A stretch of DNA of 64,000 nucleotides from an uncultured delta proteobacterium (GTDB lineage: Bacteria; Desulfobacterota; Binatia; UBA9968). This document shows, one piece after another, positions 1 to 54,661 of this stretch. The notes under the pieces are model-generated. The model had not been told where the DNA came from and searched no databases. It saw only the letters and a program-made list of their open reading frames with translations. Position numbers and translations under genes: made by a program. The stretch is taken from contig CAVYTU010000014.1 in the NCBI GenBank assembly GCA_963771465.1, positions 416,001-480,000 on the forward strand. The letters are read 5' to 3'. Every line of letters starts with the position of its first letter. Within the stretch, counting starts at the first letter, position 1.

Positions 1-966
1 TCCGACGATCCCAGCGCCGCCAAAGGCGGCGATCTGGGTTGGATGACGCAGGGGCAACTCCCGCCGCAGCTGGCGCCGATCTTCCAACTTGAGAAAGGTC
101 AGGTCAGTGAAGTAATTGAAACGCCGATGGGCTATCAGATCGTCAAGATCGAAGATACCAAAGCGGAGAAAGCTCCGTCGTTGAAAGAAGCGACGGCTGA
201 CATTACCAAGACACTTAAAACCGAAAAAGCCAAACGTGAAGCCGGTAAGATCGCCGAGCGCGACCGTGAAAAAGCGCTATCGGGAACAGACTTCGCCAAG
301 CTTGCCCAGGAAAGCGGCGCAAGTATTAACGTAACCCCATGGTTCGCCAATGGTGAGGCCATTCCAGAGGTCGGCGCCAATCAAGAGTTTTACAAAAGCG
401 CTTTTAGCTTGGGCGCTAAAGATGTCAGTTCGATTATCACCGGCTCTGCCAGCTATTATCTTTTACGCGTCAAAGAGCGTAAGGAGCCCAATGTTCCACC
501 GCTCGAAAACGTCAGAGGTCAAATCGAAAAGGGTCTCAAAGAGTCCAAAGCCTACGAATTGGCGCTACAAAAGGGCAACAGCTTGATCGAGCAGCTCAAG
601 AAGGAAAAGGACATCGGTAAGCTCGCCGGCGCCAACAACGTGAAATTGGAAGAGACCGGGTGGTTTCAGCGCAACGCACCGGAGTTGCCGAAAATCGGCG
701 AACTTCCCGACCTGAGAACCGGCGGGTTGCCGCTCTCTGCGCAGAAGCCGTTGGCCGATAAACTCTATACGCAAAAAGACGCAGCCTACGTGCTTGCGTT
801 CAAGGACAGTCAACCCGCCGACATGGAAGCATTCGAACGGGAGAAGGACAATCTCAAAAAACAAACGCTGGCGGAAAATCGCCAGCGCGCGCTAGTTAAG
901 TTTTTGGAGAGCCTCAAAGCCAAAGCCAACATCAAAGTCAATAACGCCTTTCTCGAGGCGATCTGA
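1..966 (+). CDS. ppiD: PpiD/SurA-type parvulin peptidyl-prolyl isomerase/chaperone, 5'-truncated by the window
   Basis: Frame open from base 1: SDDPSAAKGGDLGW...GQVSEVIETPMGYQIVK is the rotamase signature; a second degenerate parvulin repeat and the C-terminal LKAKANIKVN match PpiD. Confidence 0.8.
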   Translation, partial: SDDPSAAKGGDLGWMTQGQLPPQLAPIFQLEKGQVSEVIETPMGYQIVKIEDTKAEKAPSLKEATADITKTLKTEKAKREAGKIAERDREKALSGTDFAKLAQESGASINVTPWFANGEAIPEVGANQEFYKSAFSLGAKDVSSIITGSASYYLLRVKERKEPNVPPLENVRGQIEKGLKESKAYELALQKGNSLIEQLKKEKDIGKLAGANNVKLEETGWFQRNAPELPKIGELPDLRTGGLPLSAQKPLADKLYTQKDAAYVLAFKDSQPADMEAFEREKDNLKKQTLAENRQRALVKFLESLKAKANIKVNNAFLEAI

Positions 967-40828: not shown

Positions 40829-41320
40829 TTAATCTTCCACCATGACGATCCGATCGCCGACCCGAATGATTCCGCCGACAAGAATTTCCGCGCGCAAACC
40901 GCCGCGGTGAATCAGACTGCGCATCGTGCCAGGCTGAGTGAGTTTATCCAAGTGTAGGCAGGGTTCGCACAGTCGCGTGCCGCGCAGGGTGACTGCACCA
41001 ACGCGGAACTCGCGCTCGACAAAATCATTGAGTGGGACACCGCGGGTGACGATATTGCGCCGTGCTGAGCCGGCTCCGAGCGCGATCGGGTATTCGCGCC
41101 GGAGCGCTTCGATGGCTTCGATTTCGATCAATGTCACGTGGCGGCCGTCGCCCGGATGGTTCGAATAGGTTCCGCAAAGATTGTAGTAGCGGTCGTTTTC
41201 GAGGCCGCGGCCGGCGATGGCATTGACGCTACCGAGCGATTGCATCGGCGCCGCGCCATTCGGCGCAATATGCAGCGACACGACCACACTTGGCGAAACC
41301 GTTGCAGTCATGCCGATCAA
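40829..41320 (-). CDS. MOSC domain protein (alternative ATG 41311)
   Basis: GRGLENDRY, RHVTLI, RRNIVTRG, CEPC, RGGLRAEI..GGIIRVGD. Confidence 0.88.
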   Translation of the reverse strand: MIGMTATVSPSVVVSLHIAPNGAAPMQSLGSVNAIAGRGLENDRYYNLCGTYSNHPGDGRHVTLIEIEAIEALRREYPIALGAGSARRNIVTRGVPLNDFVEREFRVGAVTLRGTRLCEPCLHLDKLTQPGTMRSLIHRGGLRAEILVGGIIRVGDRIVMVED

Positions 41321-42957
41321 GCGGCGATCTTGCCGCGCGCTTCCAACACCTTTTCGACCACCGCTTCGACGTTGGCCTCGTCGGTGAAGGGCGAAAGGAT
41401 GAACGATTTGAGCGCCAGCACGGGCTCGCCATAGCTCGTCTCGCGATAAGAATCGGTCAGCGAAATCACCACGCCGCGACCGGCCATCGCTTCCTTGTGC
41501 ACATAGTCATAAATCTTTCGGTTGTAGTCGTTGTGGTAGAGCAGCGTGGCGCGAAACGCGGCATCGCTCATCTCCTGATCCTTGATGGCAAAGGTATCGA
41601 CCCCGTCAGGATAAGCGCGGAACAAAGTGACCGTGCCGAAGTTATCGCGGTTGAGCACGCACGTCGACGCATGGCCTTCGAGATGTTCACGCAAAAGTTG
41701 CGTCATCTCGACGATGTGACCGATGGTGACACGCAAGCCTTCTTTGCCGAGCAGTTTGAGATTGGCCAGCGCCGCCAGCGCGCCCATACCGCCGCGCGAG
41801 GTTTCGAGCGTAAACATCCCCGGCCGGTGCTCGCCGAACTGATAGAGATACGGCATCTGTTCCTGGCTGCGGCTCAAGAGCGACAGATCGTCGCGTTCTT
41901 TGAATAGAACCAAACTTGAAATATAGGGCGTGAAACCGGTCTTGTGAAAATCGATGCCGATGGAGTCGGCCAGCGGCAGATGGCGAATGCGCTGCGCCGC
42001 GCCCGCCAGCGCGCGCACGGTGCGCGGGCGAAAACCGAGAGGATTGGTCTCAAAATCATAGTCGCTAAATACTTGCCAAGCCCAACCGATCACCGCATCG
42101 GCGTGAACGTGCGGACGATAAGGCAAATTGAATTCCTTGATCAGCTCGTCGCGCAAGTTAACGATCGCCTCGAGATCGTCGAGGCCGAACGCATCGGTGG
42201 TGCCGAGTGTCGCGACGATGGCGGCGATGGGCCAGCCGCTTTGCAGCGCAGTGCGCGCCTGGTCGCGCAGGACGTCGAGCTTCATCGTATTGCGTGCATC
42301 GGTGGGGATCGTGATCAGATTCTTCGCGCCCAGACCGAGCCAGCCGGCGACGTTGTACCGGCAGTAGTGGCTACAGTCGCTGGCAAAAACGATGGCGCCC
42401 GCGCCGACGCCGTTTTGCATCGCGCCGGGCACGGCTTTTTCCAAACCGACTTTGACGCCGTAGAGTGTTGTCCCTGTGCCGCCGAAGGTGAACACGCCGG
42501 AAGCGCGCGCCGGATCGTAACCCATGAGCGACGCCGACATCGCGACCGCCTCGACTTCGGCAAGCGCGACTTTGTGGCTATACTCGTCCCACGCCAGGTT
42601 CGGATTGTAGAGTCCGGTCAACACTGTCGCGATCAAGGATGATATCGACGGCGGCGGCACGACGTTGATCTGCGTGCGCGGATGGCCCCAGATCGTCAGC
42701 CCTTTGAAATAGTCGACCAGATTCGCCGTCACTTCTTCCACTGTCGACGAACCCTCCGGCAGCTTGGTCTGCTGTGCGGCGGCGTAATCCAGCGGTTCGC
42801 GCGGTCCGAGTACCGGCACTTCGCTCTTGAGACTATCGACCAAATCCAAAGCGCGCATAATGCTATGGACGAAGTAAGAATCATGCACCCGGTCCGACAC
42901 CGGCTGCGGAAAGGCCAAGCGAATCTTGTCCAACTTTTCGCGGTATGGCGTCGCCAT
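41317..42957 (-). CDS. group II PLP-dependent decarboxylase
   Basis: FTFGGT, SHY, ATLGTTDAFGLDD, HVHADA, DSIGIDFHK (PLP lysine). Confidence 0.88.
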   Translation of the reverse strand: MATPYREKLDKIRLAFPQPVSDRVHDSYFVHSIMRALDLVDSLKSEVPVLGPREPLDYAAAQQTKLPEGSSTVEEVTANLVDYFKGLTIWGHPRTQINVVPPPSISSLIATVLTGLYNPNLAWDEYSHKVALAEVEAVAMSASLMGYDPARASGVFTFGGTGTTLYGVKVGLEKAVPGAMQNGVGAGAIVFASDCSHYCRYNVAGWLGLGAKNLITIPTDARNTMKLDVLRDQARTALQSGWPIAAIVATLGTTDAFGLDDLEAIVNLRDELIKEFNLPYRPHVHADAVIGWAWQVFSDYDFETNPLGFRPRTVRALAGAAQRIRHLPLADSIGIDFHKTGFTPYISSLVLFKERDDLSLLSRSQEQMPYLYQFGEHRPGMFTLETSRGGMGALAALANLKLLGKEGLRVTIGHIVEMTQLLREHLEGHASTCVLNRDNFGTVTLFRAYPDGVDTFAIKDQEMSDAAFRATLLYHNDYNRKIYDYVHKEAMAGRGVVISLTDSYRETSYGEPVLALKSFILSPFTDEANVEAVVEKVLEARGKIAA

Positions 42958-42964
42958 GAATCCC

Positions 42965-43825
42965 TCAGCGGCGCTTCTTGCTCACCAGCGCATTGATCTC
43001 CGGCGTCTGCACGCCGTCCTTCAATAGGCTGCACGTGCCTTGCTCCAAAATCTCTTGGGCCAACTTTTTGGTTGCTGTGATCGCCGTTTTCATAAAGCCT
43101 GAACCGTAACTCACCCGCGCCACACCGAGATCTTGCAACTCGCTCACGTTCGGCGACTGTGGTCCGGCGAGAATGCTGATGGGCGCCTTTACTTCCTGGG
43201 CCACCGTGCCGATGATTTCCGCGGAATGGAGACTGAGATAGAAAATGCAGTCGCTGCCCGCTTCGGCGTAGGCGTTGCCGCGGCGAATCGCTTCATCGAG
43301 AGCTTTTTTGGGATCGGCCGTCATAACGTGAAACGAATCGACGCGCGCGTTGAGAAAAAATTCACTGCCGAGCTCGCGCTTGATGTCCATCACGGACTTG
43401 ATCTTGCGGAGCTGCTGAGAAAGCTCGACCAAGCCGCTGCCCCCTTTGGCGATGCTGTCTTCCAGATTCATCCCAGCCACGCCGGCGGCGACGAGCGATC
43501 GGACAGTTTCCTTCACGCCCTCTTCGTCGCCGTAACCTTTTTCGCCGTCGGCATTGACCGGCACCGACACCGCAGCGGCAAAGCTCGCCGTCAATTGAAT
43601 GAACAAATCGCGGCTCATCGCCTCGCCGTCGGGATAACCCAATGCGGCGGCGATGCCGCCGCTGGTGCATTGAATCGCCTGGAAGCCCAACTGCTGAAAC
43701 AGCAGCGCGCTCAAGACATCGTAGGCGCCGGGCATGACGAGTATCTCCGGCGCGCGGACGAGTTCTCTAAGTCGTTGGCTCTTGGCGTTAGCATCTCGCA
43801 GGACATCAGTGGCAATCGGTTCCAT
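42965..43825 (-). CDS. isocitrate lyase/PEP mutase superfamily protein
   Basis: MPGAYD.LSA, TSGGIAAALGYPDGE, ADGEKGYG, NLED, NARVD, AYAEAGSD; ATG 43825 follows SD GAGGGAG. Confidence 0.85.
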   Translation of the reverse strand: MEPIATDVLRDANAKSQRLRELVRAPEILVMPGAYDVLSALLFQQLGFQAIQCTSGGIAAALGYPDGEAMSRDLFIQLTASFAAAVSVPVNADGEKGYGDEEGVKETVRSLVAAGVAGMNLEDSIAKGGSGLVELSQQLRKIKSVMDIKRELGSEFFLNARVDSFHVMTADPKKALDEAIRRGNAYAEAGSDCIFYLSLHSAEIIGTVAQEVKAPISILAGPQSPNVSELQDLGVARVSYGSGFMKTAITATKKLAQEILEQGTCSLLKDGVQTPEINALVSKKRR

Positions 43826-43989
43826 CGCAGCTCCCTCGTGACTTTTCAGAATAGGTAAACGGAATGTACCGTAAAGGGGGAACTGAGGGAAAGACCCTTG
43901 CGGTGGGGCTAGATAACCATTCTCGGTGAGGCGAAACGGTGCACAGCCGCACAAAGAAGAGCGTTAAAACAAAATATTAGTCGGCCGAA

Positions 43990-45606
43990 CTAAATCGTCA
44001 AACCGGCGCTCTGCAACGCTTGCCACGTCAAGGCGATGCCGGCGAGCAAAATAAAAGCCGACGACGTGATCGGCAGCCAGCGGGTCGTCCACTGTCCCTC
44101 GGTCTGGAAGCGTGTCATGAATTGGCGCGCATAAACCATCAGCATGCCGATGGCGATGAGCACGGCGGCCAGGCCGATGCTGAAGGCGACGATCAAGAGC
44201 AAGCCGAAACCGACCCGCTGCATCGCCACCGCGCTCAACAGCACAACCAAAGCCGCCGGACAGGGAACGATGCCGCCGCTGATGCCCAGCGCAAGTAGCT
44301 GTTTGAGCGAGACCGCTTGATTCACTTCGTGATCGTGTTGCTCGTGGCTGTCGTGGTGATGATGATGCGCATGTTCGTGATGATGGTCGTGGCCATTTGC
44401 GCCATGATCGTGAGCGCCATGATGGTAATGATTTTGTCCGAACAACTCGTCTCTGCTCCGATAGCGGCGCACTAACAGGATCAGTCCGAGCAACGCTATC
44501 GTGACGCCGGAGATCGCGCCCAACCACGGATAGAGCCGTTCCGGGACGATATACTTCGACGCATAAAGAGTAATCGCGCCAAGCAAGTAGACTCCCGCGG
44601 TGTGCGACGCGGTGACAATCACTCCGAGCAGAAACGCATGTTTAAACGTTCCGCGCGAGCCGACCAGATAGGCAGCCACCAAAGTCTTTCCATGGCCAGG
44701 CTCCAAAGCATGAAAAGCGCCAAGCCCAACAGCAATCGCTAGCGCCGCGAGAATAACTCCCAACCCCAGATCTTTTCTCGCCATAATTTCCGTGAACGAA
44801 CTGCGTGGCGTTGCTTGGCTGTTTGATTTCAACTCCACGGTTCTGCGGGTTGTCAAATCTCGCCCAAGCGCAGGCGCGACTGTCGGTCGAACTTGCGAAA
44901 TTTCAGTGATTACCCGTTTCACCACAGGCTTCGCTGTTTTGACTCGTTCGAGGGGTTTTCCTGCGCTGAAATTGTCCACGCGTCCCGCCAGCGGCACTAC
45001 TACAAAACTCATCTGCGCTGCCAGTTGCTGCGGCGGGCTATTCAGCAAGTCGGTTGGATAGTCGCTCAGGCGCGCGCTTCGGTCGGTCTCAGGGACAGAG
45101 CTGCTGAGTAGCTTCACGCCGGGCGCCGCCACAGCGATCATTTCTTTCCAGCCGGCGCGGCCAGGGAAATTGCCGTCACGATAGCTGAGCGAATAATCAC
45201 CGCCGTTGTCGCCAGCTAGTTTCCCTCTGTAAATCACACCGATCTTCAGCGTCGGCAAGCCGCCGGCACCTTCGGGAAAGATAATTTCGTGGGACTCGAG
45301 CTGCAACGTGACCCGCCGGCCGTTGATCTCAAGCAATAACCCGCCGCTCAAACTTTCCGCTTTGCGCCTCGCGTAGGCTGTCGCACTCTCGTCGTCGGCC
45401 TTCGGCACTAAACCGGTTTCTTGCATCTCTTGAAAAGTCGGGATCTCAGCCATGTCGACGATGTAGCGGAGCTCGATTTCCTGCGCGCCGATTTGAATGG
45501 CGGAATATTGGCTGATGCTAAAATTGCCGAGCGGATGGGCCGCAATCTTGCTCGTGAAGCCGAGAATAAGAGCGGCGATGAAGGTGATAATCAATCGTGA
45601 GCGCAT
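43990..45606 (-). CDS. Ni/Co transporter (RcnA/NicO-like) fused to an N-terminal extracytoplasmic domain
   Basis: Signal peptide then HPLGNFS; HALEPGHGKT, HTAGV, His-rich loop, GGIVPCPAALVVLL. Confidence 0.85.
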   Translation of the reverse strand: MRSRLIITFIAALILGFTSKIAAHPLGNFSISQYSAIQIGAQEIELRYIVDMAEIPTFQEMQETGLVPKADDESATAYARRKAESLSGGLLLEINGRRVTLQLESHEIIFPEGAGGLPTLKIGVIYRGKLAGDNGGDYSLSYRDGNFPGRAGWKEMIAVAAPGVKLLSSSVPETDRSARLSDYPTDLLNSPPQQLAAQMSFVVVPLAGRVDNFSAGKPLERVKTAKPVVKRVITEISQVRPTVAPALGRDLTTRRTVELKSNSQATPRSSFTEIMARKDLGLGVILAALAIAVGLGAFHALEPGHGKTLVAAYLVGSRGTFKHAFLLGVIVTASHTAGVYLLGAITLYASKYIVPERLYPWLGAISGVTIALLGLILLVRRYRSRDELFGQNHYHHGAHDHGANGHDHHHEHAHHHHHDSHEQHDHEVNQAVSLKQLLALGISGGIVPCPAALVVLLSAVAMQRVGFGLLLIVAFSIGLAAVLIAIGMLMVYARQFMTRFQTEGQWTTRWLPITSSAFILLAGIALTWQALQSAGLTI

Positions 45607-45613
45607 AATCCTA

Positions 45614-46919
45614 TCACCCTTCTTGCGGTGGAATCGCAGCCACATCGGCTTCAGCTGCTTCTATTTCTTTGACAGTCTTGGCAGCGTGGTCGGCGAAGAG
45701 AATATGAAAGTGCGGGTTAGCTGTGAGCGCGCGCTTGAAAAATTCTTTGGCCTTCGCCAGACTCACCGATCCCGTGGTAGATCATCCCGGCATGGTAATA
45801 CAATTTAGCGTCTTGGGTTCCCAGCCGAAGCGCTTTTTCCATGGCGCGGCTAGCTTCATCATGCTTGCCGTTGCGATAGAGATTCCACGCTAGCACGTCG
45901 TAGGCGTAAATATCGCGCCGGTAATCTAACTCGCGCTGAGCTAACTCCAAACCTTCTTTCGCCTTGATGTTGTGGTCTGCGTAGAAATACGCGAGCTCGC
46001 GATTGTAGAGAGCTTGGTTGAGCCCGTTCAACTTACCGATGTATTCGACAAAATCGTACTGTTGTCGCGCTTGCTCCGGTTTACCGACCCTCTCGAAGAC
46101 TTCACCGAGCGCTGCGGCGTGCTCGGGCATCGGCAAGATCGCAATCGCTTTCTGATAAAACACAATCGCTTCGTCGAAATTTTTCTGCGCCGCGCGTAAT
46201 TGCGCCATCCCGGCCAGCGCACGGTAATAGTTCGGATAACTTTCCAGCGATCGGCGGAAGCTCGATTCCGCCGCCGGTAAGTTTCCATGCGCGAAATATT
46301 CCGCGCCCAGCTGCCATTCCGTCCACGCGATGCTTTCCGCCGGTACTTTCATCGCTTTGCCAATCGCAATTGCACGCTCCAAATCGGCGATGGCACCGTC
46401 AACGTCGCCGCGCGCACTCTTCAAGCCGGCGAGCCTGCCGTAGGAATACAAACTCTCGTCCAGCTCCATCATGTACGCGTACGCCGCCTGAGCCTCTGCA
46501 TACCGGCCCACCTCGAGCAGCGCGTCGCCGAGCACGCCGTAAGAGTCGCTGTCCTCAGCATTGATCTCTATCGCTTTGCGCGCCTGCACGGCCGCCGGTG
46601 CGAACTCATGGCGCGAGTAGAAGACGTAGGCGAGATGGCGCAGCGCGCCGCCATTCTGCGGCGCGATTTCCAGCGACTTCCTAAGCGCTTCCTCGGCGCG
46701 GTTAAAGTAACTTGGATCACCGCTCTCGCGCGCCTTGCGGATCAGCGCGTCGCCGAGTCCGAAATAAGCTTTGGCGCTTTGCGGATTGCGTCTGAGCAGT
46801 TGCTGGTAGTAACCGATCTGGTTGTCGGTGGCGCTGAGCTGCGCAAGGAGATTTGCTGCCGAGAACAGTACTGCGGCAATTATCAGGAGCAGAAGTTTGG
46901 CGGCTTTGAATGTTTTCAT
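45614..46919 (-). CDS. secreted tetratricopeptide repeat protein with an apparent +1 frameshift near the C-terminus
   Basis: Signal peptide and many TPRs; track ORF stops at 45717 but the shifted frame continues AKAKEFFKRALTANPHF...QEG-TGA (45614). Confidence 0.8.
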
Positions 46920-46942
46920 GGCGCATCCTCGCACAGCAATAA

Positions 46943-46972
46943 CGCCGGAGGGTGATAGCTCTCCCTCCGGCG
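46943..46972 (-). terminator. stem-loop between the DUF4331 and TPR genes
   Basis: CGCCGGAGGG-N10-CCCTCCGGCG, followed on the minus strand by TTATT. Confidence 0.65.
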
Positions 46973-46982
46973 CGGGTTGGGT

Positions 46983-48575
46983 TTACTGCTCCACGCAAGG
47001 AGCGCCGGTGTTCTGCACGCAGTCGATATGTCTGCGTCCACGCCCGTCATATGGCGTCGGCAGGTAGGGAAACTCTTTGGCGATGCCGTTTTGGGTCACG
47101 TCGAGACGGTTGTCCGGAATCGCACCGTAGCCGGGGCCATCGTTGGTGCCCGCGCCCGGCGCGCCGCCGAGAAAGTTCACACCGTCACCGACGAGACCGG
47201 CGATGTAGTTGGCGCCGCCAACCACACGCAGGGCGATATCGGTCACGTCGTCGTTAGGACGCCGGCCGTTAGGAAAACCCGCCGGGTCGCCGGCGAGAAA
47301 GCTCAGCCGTTTTTGCTGCTCGGGCTGTGTCGGTGCCGTTTTGACGTTCAAGCGCAGCAGCTCGGAGCAAGGGTTACCGCAGTTGTTGCCGTTGAGCGCT
47401 TGCCCTGGATATTTGAGGAACACGCTCATCAAATCGGTCCTCGGTGTCGGCGTCACCGGCACACCAAAGATCAGTTGTAGCGCCAGCGCGATGGACGGAT
47501 TTTTGTAGAACTCTTGGAACTGCGCTTCGTCTTCCGGTTCTTGCGCGTTCCACAAATCCTTCGACGAGGTGTCGATAATCAGCTCATTAACAAGCGGATT
47601 GGCCATGCGCGATACCTGCATCCACGGGCCCGACAATTTTGCAGTTCCATCGCCTACTAGGTGTTTGATTTTTTGTCTGGCAGTCGAACCATACATACCA
47701 ATTAGTGGGGTGTTGGTTTGCTCCGCCGATTTGCCGTCTTTGGTGATCCGGCTGATCGGCACCTCGATGGCGATGGTGTTCACGTTGGTGCCGCTGAAAC
47801 GATTGACGCCGAATGGATCCTTGGTGTCGTCAGCGTCTTCCGCTGCGGTCAGTAATGGCAGCGGCTTGCGGCGCAGGTTCGCGGTGTCGAACACCGCGCC
47901 GAGATCGATGTAGAAAGTCTCGGCCCGCTGGCCGGCGAAAACTTTGATGCCGGTCGATGGATCGGTGTACATACCCTGGGACGCGAGATCTTCGTATCTC
48001 GGCATCGTCGCCGGCCCGACGTTGGATGGCACGGCGATCAGCTTCTGACCTTTGAATAGTTCTGTCCGTTTGTTGCCGCGCACTTCGGTGACCGTGTAAG
48101 TCTGGCGGCGTGTCAAACCTTCCGAGCCCGCACCGTCGAGCCTGGTGATGCCCTGAACGGCGGCAACGGGAATATTTGGATTTCCAACATAAGCCAGGGG
48201 AAATTCCAGCTGACCCAAGATCGGCCGGTTCTCGGTCTTGAAGCGAAATTCGTAAACAATGTCTTCGGCCTTGCCGTCTTGATTGATATCGAGATTGACA
48301 GCGTAGAGAACTTCATCATCGAAATTGAAATAGTTCGGCCCGTCGGCGGGATCCTGACCAGGCAGTACGTTGACAATGAACACGCCCTTGCTCGGATCCT
48401 GCCAGCTGCGAAATGCATATGTGTCCGTGGTGTCCGCCGCCGGATCGAGGGCGATCAGCGGCGCCTCTCGATGACTCGCCGCGCGGGCGAGCGGCGTCAT
48501 CGTCGTCAGCGCCATCAGTCCGCTCAACGACATCGCCGTCGCTCGGCAGAATAAACTCTTTTTAAATGATTTCAT
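46983..48575 (-). CDS. secreted DUF4331 domain protein
   Basis: SHREAP.I..DP.AD.TD.YAF, GPNYFNF, VFAGQR..FY.DLG.VFD, QVSRMANPLVNE, GFPNGRR..DDV.D, FPYL.TP; SD AAGGAG. Confidence 0.85.
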   Translation of the reverse strand: MKSFKKSLFCRATAMSLSGLMALTTMTPLARAASHREAPLIALDPAADTTDTYAFRSWQDPSKGVFIVNVLPGQDPADGPNYFNFDDEVLYAVNLDINQDGKAEDIVYEFRFKTENRPILGQLEFPLAYVGNPNIPVAAVQGITRLDGAGSEGLTRRQTYTVTEVRGNKRTELFKGQKLIAVPSNVGPATMPRYEDLASQGMYTDPSTGIKVFAGQRAETFYIDLGAVFDTANLRRKPLPLLTAAEDADDTKDPFGVNRFSGTNVNTIAIEVPISRITKDGKSAEQTNTPLIGMYGSTARQKIKHLVGDGTAKLSGPWMQVSRMANPLVNELIIDTSSKDLWNAQEPEDEAQFQEFYKNPSIALALQLIFGVPVTPTPRTDLMSVFLKYPGQALNGNNCGNPCSELLRLNVKTAPTQPEQQKRLSFLAGDPAGFPNGRRPNDDVTDIALRVVGGANYIAGLVGDGVNFLGGAPGAGTNDGPGYGAIPDNRLDVTQNGIAKEFPYLPTPYDGRGRRHIDCVQNTGAPCVEQ

Positions 48576-48669
48576 TTTCCTAACTCCTTCTTGGTTTAAG
48601 GTTGATTGGATAAGAACTTGCGACTGTCGCTGTCAAACTCTACGAAAGATCGATGCCTTTCGGATTGTT

Positions 48670-49095
48670 CTAGGCGGCTTGGCGAAAAATATTTTTGCTG
48701 GATTGCCTGCATGAAGACTTCGCTTGCGCTAGTTGCTGTTCCCGCCAAGCAAGCAGACCCTTGCGCAGGTAGTTGGGCTCGATCCCGAGCACGCTGCAGC
48801 AGTTGTCGAAAGAAAACACCCAATCGCTGTCGTCGCTCAATATCCACGACTCGGCATTGGCGAAACGCCGCGCACCTTTTTTGTCGCGGGCAAAGATCAA
48901 ACGCTGGAAGTCGGCCACGGCTTCTTTCAGCACCGAAACCATCAACTGCTGTTCGGGTCCGAACATGCGCTTGCCGTAGACCCGCGCATACTCGGCGCTG
49001 ACAAGAATATCCGGCTCGATCGTGCCGACGAAGATTTCGTTGTTGGCGCGGTGGTCAGCTGTCGGTTTGGCAATTGCAATCTTTTTCGTCTTCAT
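48670..49095 (-). CDS. hypothetical protein
   Basis: 141 aa, SD GAGG; PEQQLMVSVL..A..D, AESWI...DWVFSF..CC.VLG. Confidence 0.7.
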   Translation of the reverse strand: MKTKKIAIAKPTADHRANNEIFVGTIEPDILVSAEYARVYGKRMFGPEQQLMVSVLKEAVADFQRLIFARDKKGARRFANAESWILSDDSDWVFSFDNCCSVLGIEPNYLRKGLLAWREQQLAQAKSSCRQSSKNIFRQAA

Positions 49096-49109
49096 GTTTC
49101 ATCCTCGGC

Positions 49110-49140
49110 AAAAAGCTAGGGCCGGTCGTTCCGGCCCTAG
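49110..49140 (-). terminator. intrinsic terminator in the operon leader
   Basis: CTAGGGCCGG-N5-CCGGCCCTAG (10-bp stem) followed by CTTTTT, 14 nt before the next ATG. Confidence 0.75.
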
Positions 49141-49153
49141 TGCTGATGGTTTG

Positions 49154-49213
49154 TCAAGTTTTTTCGCTTAGCGTTGCGCGTAGCGATCCGGGAACTGTTT
49201 GATTCGGTTTCAT
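49154..49213 (-). CDS. putative 19-aa leader peptide MKPNQTVPGSLRATLSEKT
   Basis: AAGGGAG 8 nt before the ATG; lies between the predicted ECF promoter and the terminator. Confidence 0.35.
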   Translation of the reverse strand: MKPNQTVPGSLRATLSEKT

Positions 49214-49266
49214 TGGCCCTGCTCCCTTGTCAGTGTTTGGCCGATTTTTTCGTCCATCTGTGATGC

Positions 49267-49295
49267 TCTACGGCTGGCGTGGAGAATTTGGTTTG
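49267..49295 (-). promoter_or_regulatory. ECF-type promoter toward the DUF4331 operon
   Basis: Minus strand CAAACC-N17-CGTAGA. Confidence 0.6.
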
Positions 49296-49337
49296 GTCAA
49301 AGGCAAAAAATTTTCCGTTGAAAAAATTTTTTGGGGT

Positions 49338-49366
49338 AAATCCGCGGGCCGAGGTTCAATCGTAGA
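49338..49366 (+). promoter_or_regulatory. ECF-type promoter toward the anti-sigma/sigma operon
   Basis: AAATCC-N17-CGTAGA. Confidence 0.6.
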
Positions 49367-49436
49367 TAGTACGAGCGGTGTTTGCGCCGCTTCCTGGCGC
49401 GGTCTAGAATGGCTCGCCTGGGGTTGGAAAGAAGCC

Positions 49437-49991
49437 GTGAGCCACGAAGAATTGCTAGATTTGGCCGAGATTTACGCCTTGGGCGCGCTGGATGGCGACG
49501 AGCTTGCCGAGTTCCAGGCCCACCTGTCCGCCGGCTGCGCCGAGTGCCAAAGGCGCGTGAATGAAATACGCGAGGCGTTCACATCGGTGCCGAGTACCAT
49601 TGAACAGTTAACCCCGCCCGATCGCGTTAAAAGTCGCGTTTTCGAACAGATCGACGCCGACAAGCCTGGCTATTCATTCATATTGGCCAAAGACGGTGCG
49701 TGGAAAGAAATAGCGCAGGGCATCAGCGCAAAGGTGCTCAACATGGATCCTGACCGCCAACGCGTGACCGCGTTGGTGCGCATGGCGCCTGGTTCGCGCT
49801 ATGACAACCATCGTCACACGCGCACCGAAGAGCTCGTCGTCATCGAAGGGAGCTGCTACTGCGGCGGCAAACTCTTACAGAAAGGCGATTATCACCGCGC
49901 CGAAGCCGGCAGTATCCACCTCGATACCTATAGCGACGACGGATCGCTGATGTTGATGATCACGTCAGTGCAAAACGAGAGGCTCTTCTGA
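49437..49991 (+). CDS. zinc anti-sigma domain plus ChrR-like cupin
   Basis: YALGALD...HLSAGCAEC then cupin LVRMAPG..Y.HRH...EE.VIEG...GDYH.A.AGS.H; GTG start 49437. Confidence 0.8.
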   Translation: MSHEELLDLAEIYALGALDGDELAEFQAHLSAGCAECQRRVNEIREAFTSVPSTIEQLTPPDRVKSRVFEQIDADKPGYSFILAKDGAWKEIAQGISAKVLNMDPDRQRVTALVRMAPGSRYDNHRHTRTEELVVIEGSCYCGGKLLQKGDYHRAEAGSIHLDTYSDDGSLMLMITSVQNERLF

Positions 49992-50002
49992 AGGACCGCG
50001 CG

Positions 50003-50599
50003 ATGGCTGCCGATTCCAACTTCGCCGTTCATCTGATCCAGCGCGCCGCGGCGCAGGACCGTGAGGCCTTCAGCCAACTCTACGATCGCTTCTCCTCTTT
50101 GGTTTTCACCCTGGCGATGCGCATGCTACGCGTCGAGTCCGACGCCGAAGACTTGCTCCAGGAAGTCTTCATACAAGTTTGGCGCCAAGCCGCAAACTAT
50201 AGCCAGGAGCGCGGCCGTCCGGAAGCTTGGATAATAAATATTGCGCGCAGCCGGGCAATCGATAAGCTCCGCGCCATACGTAGAAGAGACAAGAGTTTTG
50301 TTTTGACCGATGATCCGGCCGCTGCGGAATCTCCCGATAACGTCGAGTCGGCGGTCGGAGAGAGTGAGGCGAAGCTGGCGATGAATGGCGCTCTGGCGAA
50401 TTTGCCGGAAGCGCAGCGCCGGGTCTTGGAGCTCGCCTATTTTAGCGGGCTCAGCCAAACCGAGATCGCCGAGCACTTGGCGGAACCGCTCGGCACGGTG
50501 AAAACGAGAATGCGCGCGGGAATTCAACGTCTAAGAGTGTGCTTGGAAATCAGGCGGCTTGATGGCAAGGGAACACGAACATTGGACAGAGCAGGGTGA
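50003..50599 (+). CDS. ECF sigma factor (SigK-like); true end probably 50562
   Basis: AFSQLYD, DAEDLLQEVF, IARSRAID, LAYFSGLSQTEIA...PLGTVKTR. Confidence 0.92.
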   Translation: MAADSNFAVHLIQRAAAQDREAFSQLYDRFSSLVFTLAMRMLRVESDAEDLLQEVFIQVWRQAANYSQERGRPEAWIINIARSRAIDKLRAIRRRDKSFVLTDDPAAAESPDNVESAVGESEAKLAMNGALANLPEAQRRVLELAYFSGLSQTEIAEHLAEPLGTVKTRMRAGIQRLRVCLEIRRLDGKGTRTLDRAG

Positions 50600-51296
50600 A
50601 ATCTTCGCCCTCGGCGCCCTCGACGGCGGCGAGCGCGAAGACTTCGAAGCCCATCTGGCCGCCGGCTGCGCGATCTGCGAAGCTCACGTCCGTGAAACCC
50701 GGGAAACGTTGAGTGTACTCCACCGCGCGCTGAAGCCAATAAACCCACCGGCCGCGGTCAAGACTCGGCTTTTCGATCAAATCGCCAAAGATAACGTCGT
50801 GCCGATCGCCGCCGCGGGCGCAAAAAAAATCGCGCCGTGGCGAAAAATCACTGGCGCGTTGGCCGCCGGCATTGTTGGCATAGTGATCGGTGGAACTTAC
50901 TACCGTTTGTCCTACGAACCGCGCCACACGGTTTATACTTCCGTGATCAATTTGCTACGCGATCCGGCGACGCGCGATCACGCTCTCTACGGCGCCGGCC
51001 CGGTGCCACAAGCCAAAGGCCGTTTTCTCTGGAACGAATCGGGTGAAGGCCACATCTTCGCGACCAATCTTCCCGCCGCTGCCGAAGGGAAAATGTACGC
51101 CGTCTGGACCATCGCGGAAAACTCCGCGCCGCGCTACGTCGGGACCATCAAGACCGACGCCAAAGGCCAAGGCGGTCTGCACGTCAATTCCACCCGCAGT
51201 GACAAACCGATAGAAACCTTTGCAGTCACTCTCGAACCGGACGGCACCACCGCCGCACCGACGGGGCCGATGGTGCTGGTTTCCAAACAGTCGTAG
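50562..51296 (+). CDS. anti-sigma-K factor RskA-like membrane protein
   Basis: FALGALD...HLAAGCAIC, PP.AVK.RL, one TM, LP...GKMY.VW, FAVTLEP.G...PTGP.V. Confidence 0.88.
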   Translation: MAREHEHWTEQGEIFALGALDGGEREDFEAHLAAGCAICEAHVRETRETLSVLHRALKPINPPAAVKTRLFDQIAKDNVVPIAAAGAKKIAPWRKITGALAAGIVGIVIGGTYYRLSYEPRHTVYTSVINLLRDPATRDHALYGAGPVPQAKGRFLWNESGEGHIFATNLPAAAEGKMYAVWTIAENSAPRYVGTIKTDAKGQGGLHVNSTRSDKPIETFAVTLEPDGTTAAPTGPMVLVSKQS

Positions 51297-51303
51297 CCAA
51301 AAA

Positions 51304-51328
51304 GGCGGGTTGCAAACCCGCCGCCACA
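51304..51328. repeat. REP-like palindrome/terminator GGCGGGTTGCAAACCCGCC
   Basis: GGCGGGTT/AACCCGCC stem right after the rskA-like stop; on the minus strand followed by T5. Confidence 0.6.
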
Positions 51329-51340
51329 ATTTCTATTCCC

Positions 51341-51432
51341 CTTTGTGTCTTTGCGCTCTTTGCGGCTAATCTCGCGATTCTGATCAGCGCGGTCCCAAGC
51401 GGCAACTATGTGATCTTCGTATTTTTTGCGGT
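51341..51432 (+). repeat. two 9-mer arrays of the CTTTGCGNN family
   Basis: CTTTGTGT CTTTGCGCT CTTTGCGGC (51341-51366) and CTATGTGAT CTTCGTATT TTTTGCGGT (51406-51432), both followed by TA. Confidence 0.6.
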
Positions 51433-51888
51433 TACTTCCCTACCGAGAACCATTTTTCGATGCGCAATTCCCGCTTCGTCGAAAATTTTCCCGACGGCGT
51501 GAAAACCCATCCGCTCGTAGAAGCCAGTCACGGCGACCTGTGCGTATAGGTAAATCCGCCGCGCGTGCAATCTTTTCGCCGCCAAAATGGCGCGCTTGAG
51601 TAAAGCCGCGCCAATGCCCTTGCGTCGATAACTCTTCAGCACCGCCATGCGCCCGATCTTCGCGTGGCCCTGGCGCATTACCACTCTAGCCGTTCCCACG
51701 GCCGTGCCTGAACTGATCGCAAGAAAATGAACGGCGCGCTGATCATCGGTATCCAATTCAATCTCCGCCGGCACACGTTGCTCCCGCACGAACACACGGA
51801 TGCGGATTGTGAAGACTTGCACCAGCTCCAACTGGGAAGACACGTGTTTAATTTTCAGCGCTGATCTCGTCTTGCCATTTCTGCTCAT
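51406..51888 (-). CDS. GNAT acetyltransferase (ElaA/YjcF-like)
   Basis: IR.RVFV.EQ.VP, GTAR, KIGRMAV, R.KGIG, AQ....FYE..GF, EAGI.H..M. Confidence 0.9.
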   Translation of the reverse strand: MSRNGKTRSALKIKHVSSQLELVQVFTIRIRVFVREQRVPAEIELDTDDQRAVHFLAISSGTAVGTARVVMRQGHAKIGRMAVLKSYRRKGIGAALLKRAILAAKRLHARRIYLYAQVAVTGFYERMGFHAVGKIFDEAGIAHRKMVLGREVTAKNTKIT

Positions 51889-51942
51889 TGAAATCCTTCC
51901 GTTTATTCACTGCTATCTGGAATGCCCGCTGGCTTCCCCATG

Positions 51943-51972
51943 TTGACACAAGCTAAACTTATCGGATAGTTT
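51943..51972 (+). promoter_or_regulatory. sigma70-type promoter of the VOC gene
   Basis: TTGACA-N18-TAGTTT. Confidence 0.5.
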
Positions 51973-52027
51973 CACTTCAGTGATCGTTCACGTTGTACCC
52001 TGAACCAACCAGTAAAGGAGACTTGCC

Positions 52028-53628: not shown

Positions 53629-54525
53629 TTAATGCAGATTCCTCGTCACATCGCCAAACAACTCGTCCACTGCGATCTGCGTCGGAATCAATCTTTGCTG
53701 GACGCAATAATTGATGATCAACTCCAGGCTTCGCCTAATATTTTCAACACCGAACTGGATCGGATCAAGCGCGGTACCTACAGCAGTCGCGGCTTGTTTG
53801 CTTTCCCGAAGCAGGCGGTAAATCTCCTTCACGGCCGCTGGATTGGACTTTGCCAGCGACTCTTTCACGACCAGCATGTGGTTGATCGGCAACACGCCGT
53901 ACTTCTCACCCCAGGCTTTTGCCGCCTCATGAGGATTGGCAAAAACTGGCTGTAATCTCGTGTCTTTGAGATCCGCGCCACCGACAAGTCCGGCGTCGAC
54001 GGCGCCGTCGATGAGCATTTGCCCAAGCGATTTGCCGGCGGGCGCGCGCACTGCGATCGGCGGATCCGAATACTCTGCAACATGGGGGTCTTCAAAGGTC
54101 ACCCATTTGATGCTGTCGAGATCGACGTCATGATCGTTTTGTAAGACACCACGCATCCATGCAGCGGTAGTCACAGAGTACGCACGGATGCCGACGCGCT
54201 TGCCGTTCAGATCAGCTGGCGAAATCCGGCCGCGCTCGGCGTTGTAGACCAGAAACGGATGCGGCATCGAACCGACGACGACCGCAGGTAGCAGCACGAG
54301 CGGTTTACCATGCGCCCTAGCCTGTAAATAAGTGACGATTGCCAACTCGGCGACATCGTACTTGAAATGGCGCACAACATCTTTGAACGCGGTATTTGGC
54401 ACCTTCACATCGGCGAAGTCGAAGACAATATTCGGCGAGCGAACGTCGCCGTTCTTCAACGCCAACGTGTTCGGATAGTCGCCCAATAGCGTTTTGAGTG
54501 TCACAACGTTCAATTCATTGCTCAT
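53629..54525 (-). CDS. 4,5-dihydroxyphthalate decarboxylase-like/ABC binding-protein-fold protein
   Basis: GDYPNT.AL..G, DVAELA, GKRVGIRAYSVT.A.W.RG.L, PINH.LVV. Confidence 0.75.
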   Translation of the reverse strand: MSNELNVVTLKTLLGDYPNTLALKNGDVRSPNIVFDFADVKVPNTAFKDVVRHFKYDVAELAIVTYLQARAHGKPLVLLPAVVVGSMPHPFLVYNAERGRISPADLNGKRVGIRAYSVTTAAWMRGVLQNDHDVDLDSIKWVTFEDPHVAEYSDPPIAVRAPAGKSLGQMLIDGAVDAGLVGGADLKDTRLQPVFANPHEAAKAWGEKYGVLPINHMLVVKESLAKSNPAAVKEIYRLLRESKQAATAVGTALDPIQFGVENIRRSLELIINYCVQQRLIPTQIAVDELFGDVTRNLH

Positions 54526-54576: not shown

Positions 54577-54661
54577 TACTGCTATCACCGTACGTCTAGC
54601 CTGGCAATTCGGATGAAATTTCCCTCGCAACCGCGTCATCGCTTTGCTACGATGGTTGTTC

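Follow-up and report, generated by a model that had tools for sequence, protein, structure and literature searches.

Some metal permeases carry a metal-binding domain of their own. In the anglerase-permeases (PMC12537917; Franco Cairo et al., Nat Commun 2025), domains with a histidine at the mature N terminus (His1) bind Cu2+ (~62-74 nM) and Ni2+ (220 nM) and are proposed to “fish” metal ions for the permease. In that paper, DUF4198 and DUF6702 are characterized as His1 Ni-binding proteins. Extracytoplasmic N-terminal-His proteins of this kind capture Ni, Co, Cu, or Zn for uptake. Here, we describe a locus in a 64,000-nucleotide (nt) stretch of DNA, hereinafter the window, from an uncultured delta proteobacterium (Binatia; GenBank assembly GCA_963771465.1, contig CAVYTU010000014.1, positions 416,001 to 480,000, forward strand), in which a fusion permease, a tetratricopeptide repeat (TPR) protein, and a DUF4331 protein are encoded opposite an extracytoplasmic function (ECF) sigma factor. 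What is new here is a permease of the anglerase type, as judged from a structural model, that is built on a NicO scaffold and stands in a conserved, ECF-controlled operon with the uncharacterized DUF4331 family.

The window permease is like the anglerase-permeases (PMC12537917) in having a His right after the signal peptide, a predicted periplasmic beta-sandwich whose strands 2 and 3 are connected by helices, a flexible linker, and a metal permease; moreover, a true HupE/UreJ-2 fusion stands at this point of the operon in 17 related loci. It is unlike them in that its membrane part is of the NicO/RcnA type and not PF13795, and in that its N-terminal domain has neither sequence similarity to Ang-1 nor a Pfam family. 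A DUF4331-TPR partnership, an ECF promoter, and an operon hairpin are not described in the accessible part of PMC12537917, and TPR, NicO, RcnA, sigma factors, and amino-terminal Cu/Ni (ATCUN) motifs are not mentioned in its main text as far as accessible. In its source-data neighbor tables, within the same limits, DUF4331 occurs three times in all (two entries displayed, with counts 1 and 2). A literature search on “anglerase” and IPR032809 returned only this paper, and a full-text search for DUF4331 or PF14224, which covered supplementary tables only in part, returned no paper on the family.

With RcnA, the Ni/Co efflux protein of Escherichia coli, and the NicO family (HoxN, NixA), the window permease shares a fold of six transmembrane (TM) helices, a HALEPGHGK-type motif in TM1, and a P-C-P motif in TM4, and with RcnA also a His-rich loop between TM3 and TM4. 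It differs from RcnA in its operon partners and in an extra periplasmic domain (~290 residues including the linker). On the regulatory side, the locus is like SigK-RskA of Mycobacterium tuberculosis (ECF19) and like ECF18 in having an RskA-like anti-sigma gene directly downstream of the sigma gene, an ATCC/CGTA promoter, and secreted-protein targets; with RpoE-ChrR of Rhodobacter sphaeroides (ECF11), it shares a ChrR-type cupin anti-sigma factor, and RpoE is among the best PDB matches of the window sigma factor. It is unlike both systems in that the sigma gene is flanked by both types of anti-sigma genes.

On balance, we consider it somewhat probable that the locus is a conserved envelope module that handles a divalent transition metal and is activated by an ECF sigma factor of its own, and that its purpose is most likely uptake. 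The genes and sites concerned are the following (window numbering throughout).

Positions 43990 to 45645, minus strand: fusion permease (551-amino-acid [aa] open reading frame [ORF]), its periplasmic His1 domain joined through a disordered linker to a 6-TM NicO/RcnA-type domain that has a His-rich loop
Positions 44998 to 45537, minus strand: periplasmic N-terminal domain (N-domain) of the permease, a predicted anglerase-like beta-sandwich with the mature end His-Pro-Leu-Gly-Asn-Phe after an A-x-A site
Positions 45717 to 46934, minus strand: secreted TPR protein (405-aa ORF), likely starting at ATG 46919 behind a GAGGA ribosome-binding site
Core at about positions 46942 to 46973, minus strand: GC-rich hairpin between the DUF4331 and TPR genes, likely a partial terminator or mRNA stabilizer
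Positions 46983 to 48575, minus strand: DUF4331 protein (530 aa), with a signal peptide followed by A-S-H-R-E-A-P
Positions 48641 to 48666, minus strand: ECF18/19-type promoter of the DUF4331 operon, AATCC-N17-CGTA, ~60 nt before the DUF4331 start
Positions 49339 to 49364, plus strand: ECF18/19-type promoter of the anti-sigma/sigma/anti-sigma operon, AATCC-N17-CGTA, ~70 nt before GTG 49437
Positions 49437 to 49991, plus strand (within the divergent ORF at 49227 to 49991): soluble anti-sigma factor with a class-I anti-sigma N-terminal domain (H-x4-C-x2-C) and a ChrR-type cupin
Positions 50003 to 50599, plus strand: ECF sigma factor of the ECF18/ECF19 (SigK-like) clade, with Sigma70_r2/r4
Positions 50559 to 51296, plus strand: RskA-like membrane anti-sigma factor with one TM helix and an extracytoplasmic RskA_C domain, its gene overlapping the sigma gene by ~40 nt

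Pfam, NCBIfam, Rfam, and PDB sequence searches were run on the window genes; the Rfam search of positions 43500 to 52000 gave no match at an E value of 1 or below. All ORFs were found at the coordinates given in a preliminary description of this DNA, which had read the locus as a self-contained, ECF-controlled extracytoplasmic metal module. Its observation of the genes, the promoters, and a stem-loop stands, and its interpretation of a linked regulon with a transporter that carries a periplasmic domain is supported; the inclusion of a 141-aa gene and the term “self-contained” are not.

Conservation of the DUF4331-TPR-permease operon

A DUF4331 profile made from 58 diverse proteins identified 602 confirmed loci in contigs of one genome per species. 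The best 80 of these, namely, those closest to the query (numbered L001 and so on), were kept, so that the locus frequencies describe nearer relatives. Gene content was determined by profile searches on stop-to-stop ORFs, using filtered sigma and anti-sigma profiles built from the window proteins. Loci were regarded as testable when they had at least 1.3 kb downstream for the TPR gene (n = 73), at least 3.5 kb downstream for the permease (n = 64), or both flanks for the sigma gene (n = 49).

Our analysis shows that DUF4331, TPR, and permease genes form a recurrent conserved operon. A TPR ortholog lies directly downstream of DUF4331 in 57 of the 73 testable loci, and a fusion permease is present in 39 of 64 (23 of the NicO type and 17 of the HupE/UreJ-2 type, with one locus having both); loci with a permease always hold a TPR gene, too. 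The HupE-type cluster corresponds to HupE_UreJ_2 (PF13795) with its own N-terminal domain, which in one case gives a weak DUF6702 match (E value, 6.5e-4). The preliminary description had suggested a neighborhood survey of DUF4331, and these counts bear out the co-occurrence with TPR and NicO/HupE genes that it expected; the single regulon that it proposed for the sigma genes, DUF4331, TPR, and the transporter agrees with the conserved gene order and the shared promoter found here and in other genomes.

The loci span Binatota, Acidobacteriota, Actinomycetota, Chloroflexota, Pseudomonadota, Verrucomicrobiota, and other phyla, and the arrangement also exists in cultured organisms. A Streptomyces anulatus plasmid encodes DUF4331, TPR, and a 549-aa “nickel transporter,” followed by a fasciclin gene; Marinobacter adhaerens HP15 plasmid pHP-187 and a Comamonadaceae plasmid encode DUF4331, a small ORF, a ~400-aa protein, and HupE/UreJ; and Miltoncostaea oceani has DUF4331 and TPR. 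In pHP-187 (L081), neighboring genes of the module encode a PhoD-family alkaline phosphatase, a metallophosphoesterase, a DUF3299 protein, and a PKD protein, with a gene of DUF3455, another ECF18-context family, nearby.

A quick maximum-likelihood tree, built from 77 DUF4331 proteins, places the window and L001 (both NicO) as sister, with a support of 100, to two proteobacterial HupE-type loci. Well-supported branches force at least 8 (NicO) and at least 9 (HupE) changes of permease type on this tree. Because the type switches repeatedly, the NicO and HupE permeases appear to be interchangeable and to do the same job.

Fusion permease and its periplasmic domain

Since the predicted signal peptide begins at the second Met of the 551-aa ORF, the permease likely starts at ATG 45606. 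Pfam NicO (PF03824) matches residues 301 to 541 (E value, 8e-15; 55.3 bits versus a gathering score of 27.7), and DsbD_2 gives a weaker match in the same membrane region. The nearest NCBIfam subfamily is RcnA-type Ni/Co efflux (PRK10019), with 144 bits, which is under the cutoff of 195; the protein may work like RcnA, and it cannot be filed as RcnA. In the loop between TM3 and TM4, we counted 18 His in ~80 residues, in line with the His-rich loop reported in the preliminary description; across the 15 related fusions measured, the number ranges from 2 to 19. The earlier description of a Ni/Co-type transporter with its own periplasmic domain is likewise borne out, and a structural precedent is now available (PDB 9GCE; PMC12537917).

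The mature N terminus of the window permease, with the cleavage site read by the A-x-A rule, is A-A/H-P-L-G-N-F (the slash marks the cleavage site). The same pattern, A-x-A followed by H-P-(L/M)-G-N-F, is found in 19 of the 25 ORFs of the NicO cluster (the other 6 are fragments, second NicO-like ORFs, or ORFs without the motifs), and A-x-A followed by H-K-x-S-D-S-Y is found in 17 of the 18 ORFs of the HupE cluster. Invariant in the 19 N-domain sequences are H1, P2, G4, N5, F6, D28, A30-P33, W130, and E132. A Pfam scan of these 19 members yielded only chance-level matches and none that was credible.

An AlphaFold2 (AF2) model of the N-domain, based on a 47-sequence alignment, reached a predicted local distance difference test (pLDDT) score of 84.8 and a predicted template modeling (pTM) score of 0.79. 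The modeled fold is a beta-sandwich in which two helices separate strands 2 and 3 (elements E8-16, E20-29, H31-41, H50-64, E67-71, and onward); a disordered linker follows. In a comparison of this model with 350,542 PDB chains, the first match was 9GCE, i.e., the Cu-bound Ang-1 domain (RbAng-1a) of a HupE/UreJ-2 protein (E value, 1e-4; probability, 1.00; template modeling [TM] scores, 0.31/0.44; 18% identity over 146 columns). Only two PDB matches had an E value of 0.001 or below; in the same search, the zinc-binding protein ZrgA (8f1b) matched with a probability of 0.97. As far as the model goes, the window N-domain is thus structurally akin, at modest TM scores, to a proven Cu/Ni-binding anglerase domain, which would extend the anglerase idea from HupE/UreJ-2 to NicO/RcnA-type transporters.

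DUF4331, the TPR protein, and the hairpin between their genes

PF14224 matches the 530-aa protein over profile positions 2 to 421 of 421 (E value, 1e-110; 371 bits versus a gathering score of 27). The family is large, with at least 7650 clusters at 90% identity among at least 8000 candidates, and 4715 representatives at 50% identity. H35 and a PNGRR..DD motif are invariant in 58 DUF4331 sequences. The tripeptide preceding the invariant His, in the 48 of the 58 sequences matched by a motif search, is ASS in 29, AAS in 8, GSS in 4, MSS in 4, and one of three others in a single sequence each; four DUF4331 sequences start with M-S-S-H. Cleavage two residues before the His and cleavage directly before it both fit the -3/-1 rule. 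An X-X-His at a free N terminus is the ATCUN motif. It is this conserved His at or near the mature N terminus, and no other feature, that points to metal binding by DUF4331.

The AF2 model of DUF4331 (pLDDT, 82.2; pTM, 0.85) consists of a beta-rich body (residues 49 to 324) followed by a helical part. Because residues 16 to 35 score below a pLDDT of 50, the conserved His would lie on a flexible end, just where the ordered part begins. The model matched no PDB structure at an E value of 0.001 or below (best probability, 0.15); PDB sequence searches gave nothing useful, and the ESM Atlas contained no usable match. Among 15 long DUF4331 representatives scanned, 8 carry extra modules, in one of them with a weak cytochrome-c match; SLH, CWB2, T9SS/FlgD-Ig, and RTX modules are found and, once, an alpha-carbonic anhydrase. 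The latter case is protein P0180 (695 aa), in which DUF4331 is naturally fused to a eukaryotic-type (alpha) carbonic anhydrase domain. Because DUF4331 is fused elsewhere to SLH, CWB2, T9SS, and RTX modules, it acts outside the cytoplasm.

Zcp of Neisseria gonorrhoeae is reportedly an extracytoplasmic N-terminal-His protein that captures metal for uptake. DUF4331 is like the His1 proteins DUF4198 and DUF6702 (PMC12537917) in being extracytoplasmic with an N-terminal His and, in two loci (see below), in a promoter common to DUF4198; it is unlike them in being ~3 times larger, in having a model without a solved relative, and in that its His may be at position 3 and not 1.

The 405-aa protein is matched by Pfam TPR_1/2/8/12 and related families (E values down to 1e-21). 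It shows a weak likeness, below the cutoff, to the TPR domain of CcmH/CycH (E value, 2e-9), and a search of PDB sequences with the TPR profile gave generic TPR matches only. TPR genes are doubled or fused (up to ~1000 aa) in acidobacterial loci L020, L025, L026, L028, L018, L046, and L071, and the NicO fusions of these loci have a further C-terminal extension of ~300 residues. In two plasmid loci, a small ORF lies between DUF4331 and the TPR-like gene (L081:8473-8718, 81 aa; L082:8538-8843, 101 aa). These were dismissed as a shared part of the module, being unrelated to each other (BLASTP E value, 19).

The stem-loop that the preliminary description had noticed behind DUF4331 is a conserved feature among related loci. 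In the window, the hairpin after the DUF4331 stop has a minimum free energy of -36.9 kcal/mol (z, -5.6), and none of 200 shuffles was as good; comparably unusual folding (z of -2.5 or below) occurs in the 80 nt around the DUF4331 stop in 44 of 79 loci. When codirectional junctions with gaps of 20 to 200 nt are compared, 13 of 22 are folded after DUF4331, compared with 9 of 128 at other places in these loci (Fisher P, 7.6e-8), and many of these DUF4331 hairpins are followed by a U-run. In operons of binding-protein-dependent transporters, hairpins of this kind boost the yield of the first gene product relative to that of the membrane components. The conserved hairpin fits an abundant first gene product, and DUF4331 may therefore be made in excess.

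Sigma factor, anti-sigma factors, and promoters

The sigma factor finds its best PDB sequence matches in SigK (4nqw; E value, 3e-29) and R. sphaeroides RpoE (2q1z; E value, 3e-23). The ORF at positions 49227 to 49991 matches Pfam Cupin_7 (ChrR-cupin; E value, 4e-19) and RskA_N (E value, 1e-7); because the promoter of the sigma operon lies inside this long ORF and the Pfam match begins at residue 76, the gene most likely starts at GTG 49437 and encodes 184 aa. Of 9 aligned sequences, at least 90% retain the metal ligands of the cupin, HxHx3E...H, as ChrR does, and ChrR (3o14) is matched in the PDB (E value, 1.6e-5). The motif of the anti-sigma N-terminal domain is H-x4-C-x2-C and not the ZAS motif H-x3-C-x2-C. 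The sigma factor and the cupin protein stay below the NCBIfam cutoffs (162.6 bits versus 226 for SigK; 27.7 versus 124.5 for ChrR), and thus the names SigK and ChrR, which the preliminary description had brought in, can be taken to hold at clade level only. Since the window sigma factor has a single Cys in 198 aa, the two-Cys redox switch of SigK is absent; the region-4 Cys pair is not universal in ECF19 (PMC7826278 supplement). The protein encoded at positions 50559 to 51296, which was aligned with 10 relatives, matches RskA_C (E value, 5e-16) plus RskA_N, and NCBIfam NF052375 (113 bits) above the cutoff of 100.

An ECF sigma gene of this kind is present in 18 of the 49 loci with both flanks (25 of 80 overall). 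The partner in related loci is an RskA-type anti-sigma factor in 13 cases and a cupin-type one in 10, and the two types are found together in none of the 80 related loci, but only in the window. The presence of two anti-sigma factors suggests two inputs. The term “self-contained” used in the preliminary description goes too far: 31 of the 49 loci with both flanks are without a nearby sigma gene, and in some other loci the same promoter also precedes genes for TonB receptors, DUF4198, or a HoxN-type permease.

Matching ECF promoters on both strands, another earlier claim, were recovered as two copies, one per operon. The sequence AATCC-N17-CGTA occurs exactly twice on both strands of the 64 kb, with 0.39 expected by chance, and 8 of 100 shuffles gave at least two; the position and conservation of the two copies weigh more than their count. 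The closest genomic relative, L001 (Binatia; DUF4331 84% identical), and the window have in common a pair of AATCC-N16/17-CGTA sites in the divergent region. In L001, the equivalent site before the sigma gene is at positions 791 to 816 (minus strand), and the two promoters are ~50 nt apart, back to back, with no gene between them. Autoregulation of the sigma operon is likely.

Across the 80 loci (2.53 Mb, both strands), ATCC-N16/17-CGTA occurs 103 times. On the coding strand within 390 nt before DUF4331, it is found in 39 of 74 testable loci versus 1.6% expected (binomial P, ~4e-50). Proteobacterial loci read TGCATCC...CGTA, which is the published ECF18 consensus, namely, (GC)ATCC at -35 and CGTA at -10 (PMC7826278 supplement and PMC13492112 Table 4). 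ECF18s13 and ECF214s1 have DUF4331 in their conserved context according to the PMC7826278 supplement, and thus the link between such sigma factors and DUF4331 is already on record, though only as a supplement line. In 8 further loci, mostly of Actinomycetota, CGAACCG-N15-18-CGAA is found before DUF4331 instead, and 3 of these (L047, L062, and L078; the others are L040, L048, L056, L067, and L069) have a divergent copy before the sigma gene, i.e., a back-to-back pair. Of the 13 matches of this type in 84 loci, only 2 are elsewhere. We take this site to resemble the mycobacterial SigK site.

Other genes lie behind the same promoter (only ATCC-type sites were considered). They encode TonB-dependent receptors (L023, L025, L028, and L058), second TPR-NicO operons (L018, L045, L046, and L071), PEP-CTERM proteins preceding DUF4331 (L005 and L008), DUF4198 proteins (L038 and L057), a stand-alone HoxN/NixA-family Ni/Co permease above the NCBIfam cutoff (L058), and sigma operons (L001, L006, L031, and L054). 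In the window, a third site, ATCC-N16-CGTA at positions 54591 to 54614 (minus strand), lies 66 nt before an NMT1/THI5-like ORF (positions 53629 to 54525). It may mark a further regulon member or be due to chance (4 sites in the window versus 2.3 expected).

Function of the module

We propose that the ECF sigma factor, encoded between the soluble ChrR-cupin and the membrane RskA anti-sigma factors, would switch on the sigma operon and the DUF4331-TPR-permease operon, with the cupin protein providing a cytoplasmic input and the RskA protein an envelope input. In the periplasm, the His1 domain may catch a metal ion and feed the permease. DUF4331, with X-X-His or His1 on a flexible N-terminal tail, could, as an abundant extracytoplasmic partner, scavenge or hold the metal, and the TPR protein could bridge DUF4331 and the permease as an adaptor. 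The ion would most likely be Ni(II)/Co(II), or Cu(II): Ni/Co is favored by the transporter families and the coregulated genes, while the chemistry of N-terminal His sites keeps Cu as a candidate. The net direction is most likely uptake, as suggested by the TonB receptors, HoxN, DUF4198, the interchange with HupE, and the published anglerase model.

A number of observations weigh against metal uptake by such a module. On the side of the permease, the TM scores of the 9GCE match are modest, a search of PDB sequences with N-domain profiles found no Ang-1 (9GCE) chain, and hhalign of the NicO-type against the HupE-type N-domains gave a probability of only 10%, so that their common descent is not shown; furthermore, the 144-bit match (PRK10019) places the permease closer to the efflux protein RcnA than to the uptake NicO proteins. 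On the side of DUF4331, the 58 sequences have one invariant His and no conserved Cys or Met, the many invariant Asp, Asn, and Arg residues look more like an enzyme or Ca2+ site, and the mature protein, with cleavage read by rule, would begin either with His or with X-X-His. DUF4331 is without a TPR or permease gene nearby in 18 of 80 loci, and in a metagenome-assembled genome of Melainabacteria (L066:5553-11446), genes for a membrane-fusion protein and a CusA/CzcA heavy-metal efflux pump lie directly upstream, on the same strand, of DUF4331-TPR. As for regulation, three of four cultured-host plasmid loci lack the exact promoter in front of DUF4331 (L081, L082, and L084; L083 was outside the scan), and ECF sigma factors more commonly control stress responses than uptake. 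In addition, frequencies in the whole family may differ from those in the 80 loci closest to the query.

The likeness to RcnA, the His-rich loop, the efflux-pump neighbor in L066, and the ECF control keep two rival explanations alive. In one, metal is exported for maturation: the RcnA-like permease would pump a cofactor out onto His1, and the TPR protein, as a chaperone, would present apo-DUF4331, a secreted metalloenzyme or metal-dependent surface protein. We regard this as rather unlikely, although several observations suit it, namely, the RcnA-like best match together with the cytoplasmic His-rich loop, the weak likeness of the TPR protein to the TPR domain of CcmH/CycH, which serves in cytochrome maturation, a TPR gene that is more constant than the permease (57/73 versus 39/64), a large and well-folded DUF4331 body with its own fold and many invariant polar residues, the single fusion to carbonic anhydrase, and the Marinobacter DUF4331 gene beside PhoD-type and metallophosphoesterase genes. 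However, the NicO type is replaced in 17 loci by HupE/UreJ-type permeases, known only as importers (to our knowledge and in PMC12537917), and the promoter is common to TonB receptors, DUF4198, and the HoxN-type importer. The same coregulation of importers and TonB receptors, and the same interchange of NicO with HupE-type permeases, argue against Ni/Co (or Cu) resistance, in which the ECF sigma factor would sense envelope or metal stress and induce RcnA-like efflux, with DUF4331 and TPR acting as a buffer analogous to RcnA/RcnB. For resistance speak the RcnA-like permease, the heavy-metal efflux resistance-nodulation-division (RND) pump adjoining DUF4331 in L066, and the ECF18 member RpoP of Cupriavidus metallidurans, which is linked to Ni/Co resistance (PMC7826278 supplement and PMC6851896). 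Nevertheless, RpoP does not respond to metals (PMC6851896), and an RND pump of this kind is present in only 1 of the 80 loci, all of which makes resistance an unlikely explanation. RpoP was also considered as a direct counterpart of the module and rejected, as the two are linked by ECF group only.

The transporter might, finally, be a mere passenger, and DUF4331 a non-metal secreted surface protein of a SigK-type regulon, like fasciclin/MPT70-83. ECF18/19 contexts are rich in secreted proteins of unknown function, namely, fasciclin, DUF4394, and DUF3455 (PMC7826278 supplement), a fasciclin gene lies beside the module in L084 and a DUF3455 gene in L081, and DUF4331 stands alone in 18 of 80 loci. 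This regulatory link without a metal function is improbable in view of two unrelated His1-bearing permease families that share one position in the operon, in 39 of 64 loci and across phyla.

Within the metal uptake explanation, a more far-reaching version is conceivable but doubtful: DUF4331 would be a new-fold metal-capture protein that, with the TPR adaptor and anglerase-tipped NicO/HupE permeases, makes up a widespread, unrecognized route of metal acquisition, switched by ECF18/19 sigma factors instead of Fur/NikR/Zur-type repressors and, in some loci, supplemented with a TonB-dependent receptor. At least 602 loci, counting one genome per species, were identified in many phyla. In any case, DUF4331 is now tied to a set of operon partners, a promoter, a sigma clade, and a newly described class of metal-catching permeases, which makes it testable in culturable hosts. 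Moreover, the handling of trace metals by soil bacteria may be under the control of SigK-type sigma factors, for which little is understood of the signals and the logic of the regulons.

Neighboring genes

One gene lies between the two divergent promoters and one gene pair lies behind the permease.

Positions 48670 to 49095, minus strand: 141-aa gene, a lineage-specific insert between the two divergent promoters

The preliminary description had counted the 141-aa gene as part of the module. We excluded it: the DUF4331 promoter is located between the 141-aa stop and the DUF4331 start, which places the gene outside the ECF-driven operon; no homolog was found in the 80 related loci; and its relatives, 8 homologs with 51 to 99% identity, are in Binatota-only clusters. 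The protein belongs to no Pfam or NCBIfam family, and a PDB sequence search gave nothing useful. The local GC content is lower (0.52). The ORF is a real but lineage-specific gene. A strong terminator-like hairpin (positions 49116 to 49140; z, -5.3) lies 20 nt before its start codon.

On the other side, 35 nt after the permease, genes for proteins of the phosphoenolpyruvate (PEP)-mutase/isocitrate-lyase family and a pyridoxal-phosphate (PLP) decarboxylase are found (window positions 41317 to 43954, minus strand). They were rejected as module members, since they recur only in L001, the other Binatia locus, score below all NCBIfam cutoffs, and have their own sigma-70-like promoter, TTGACG-16-TAATAT, at positions 44001 to 43974.

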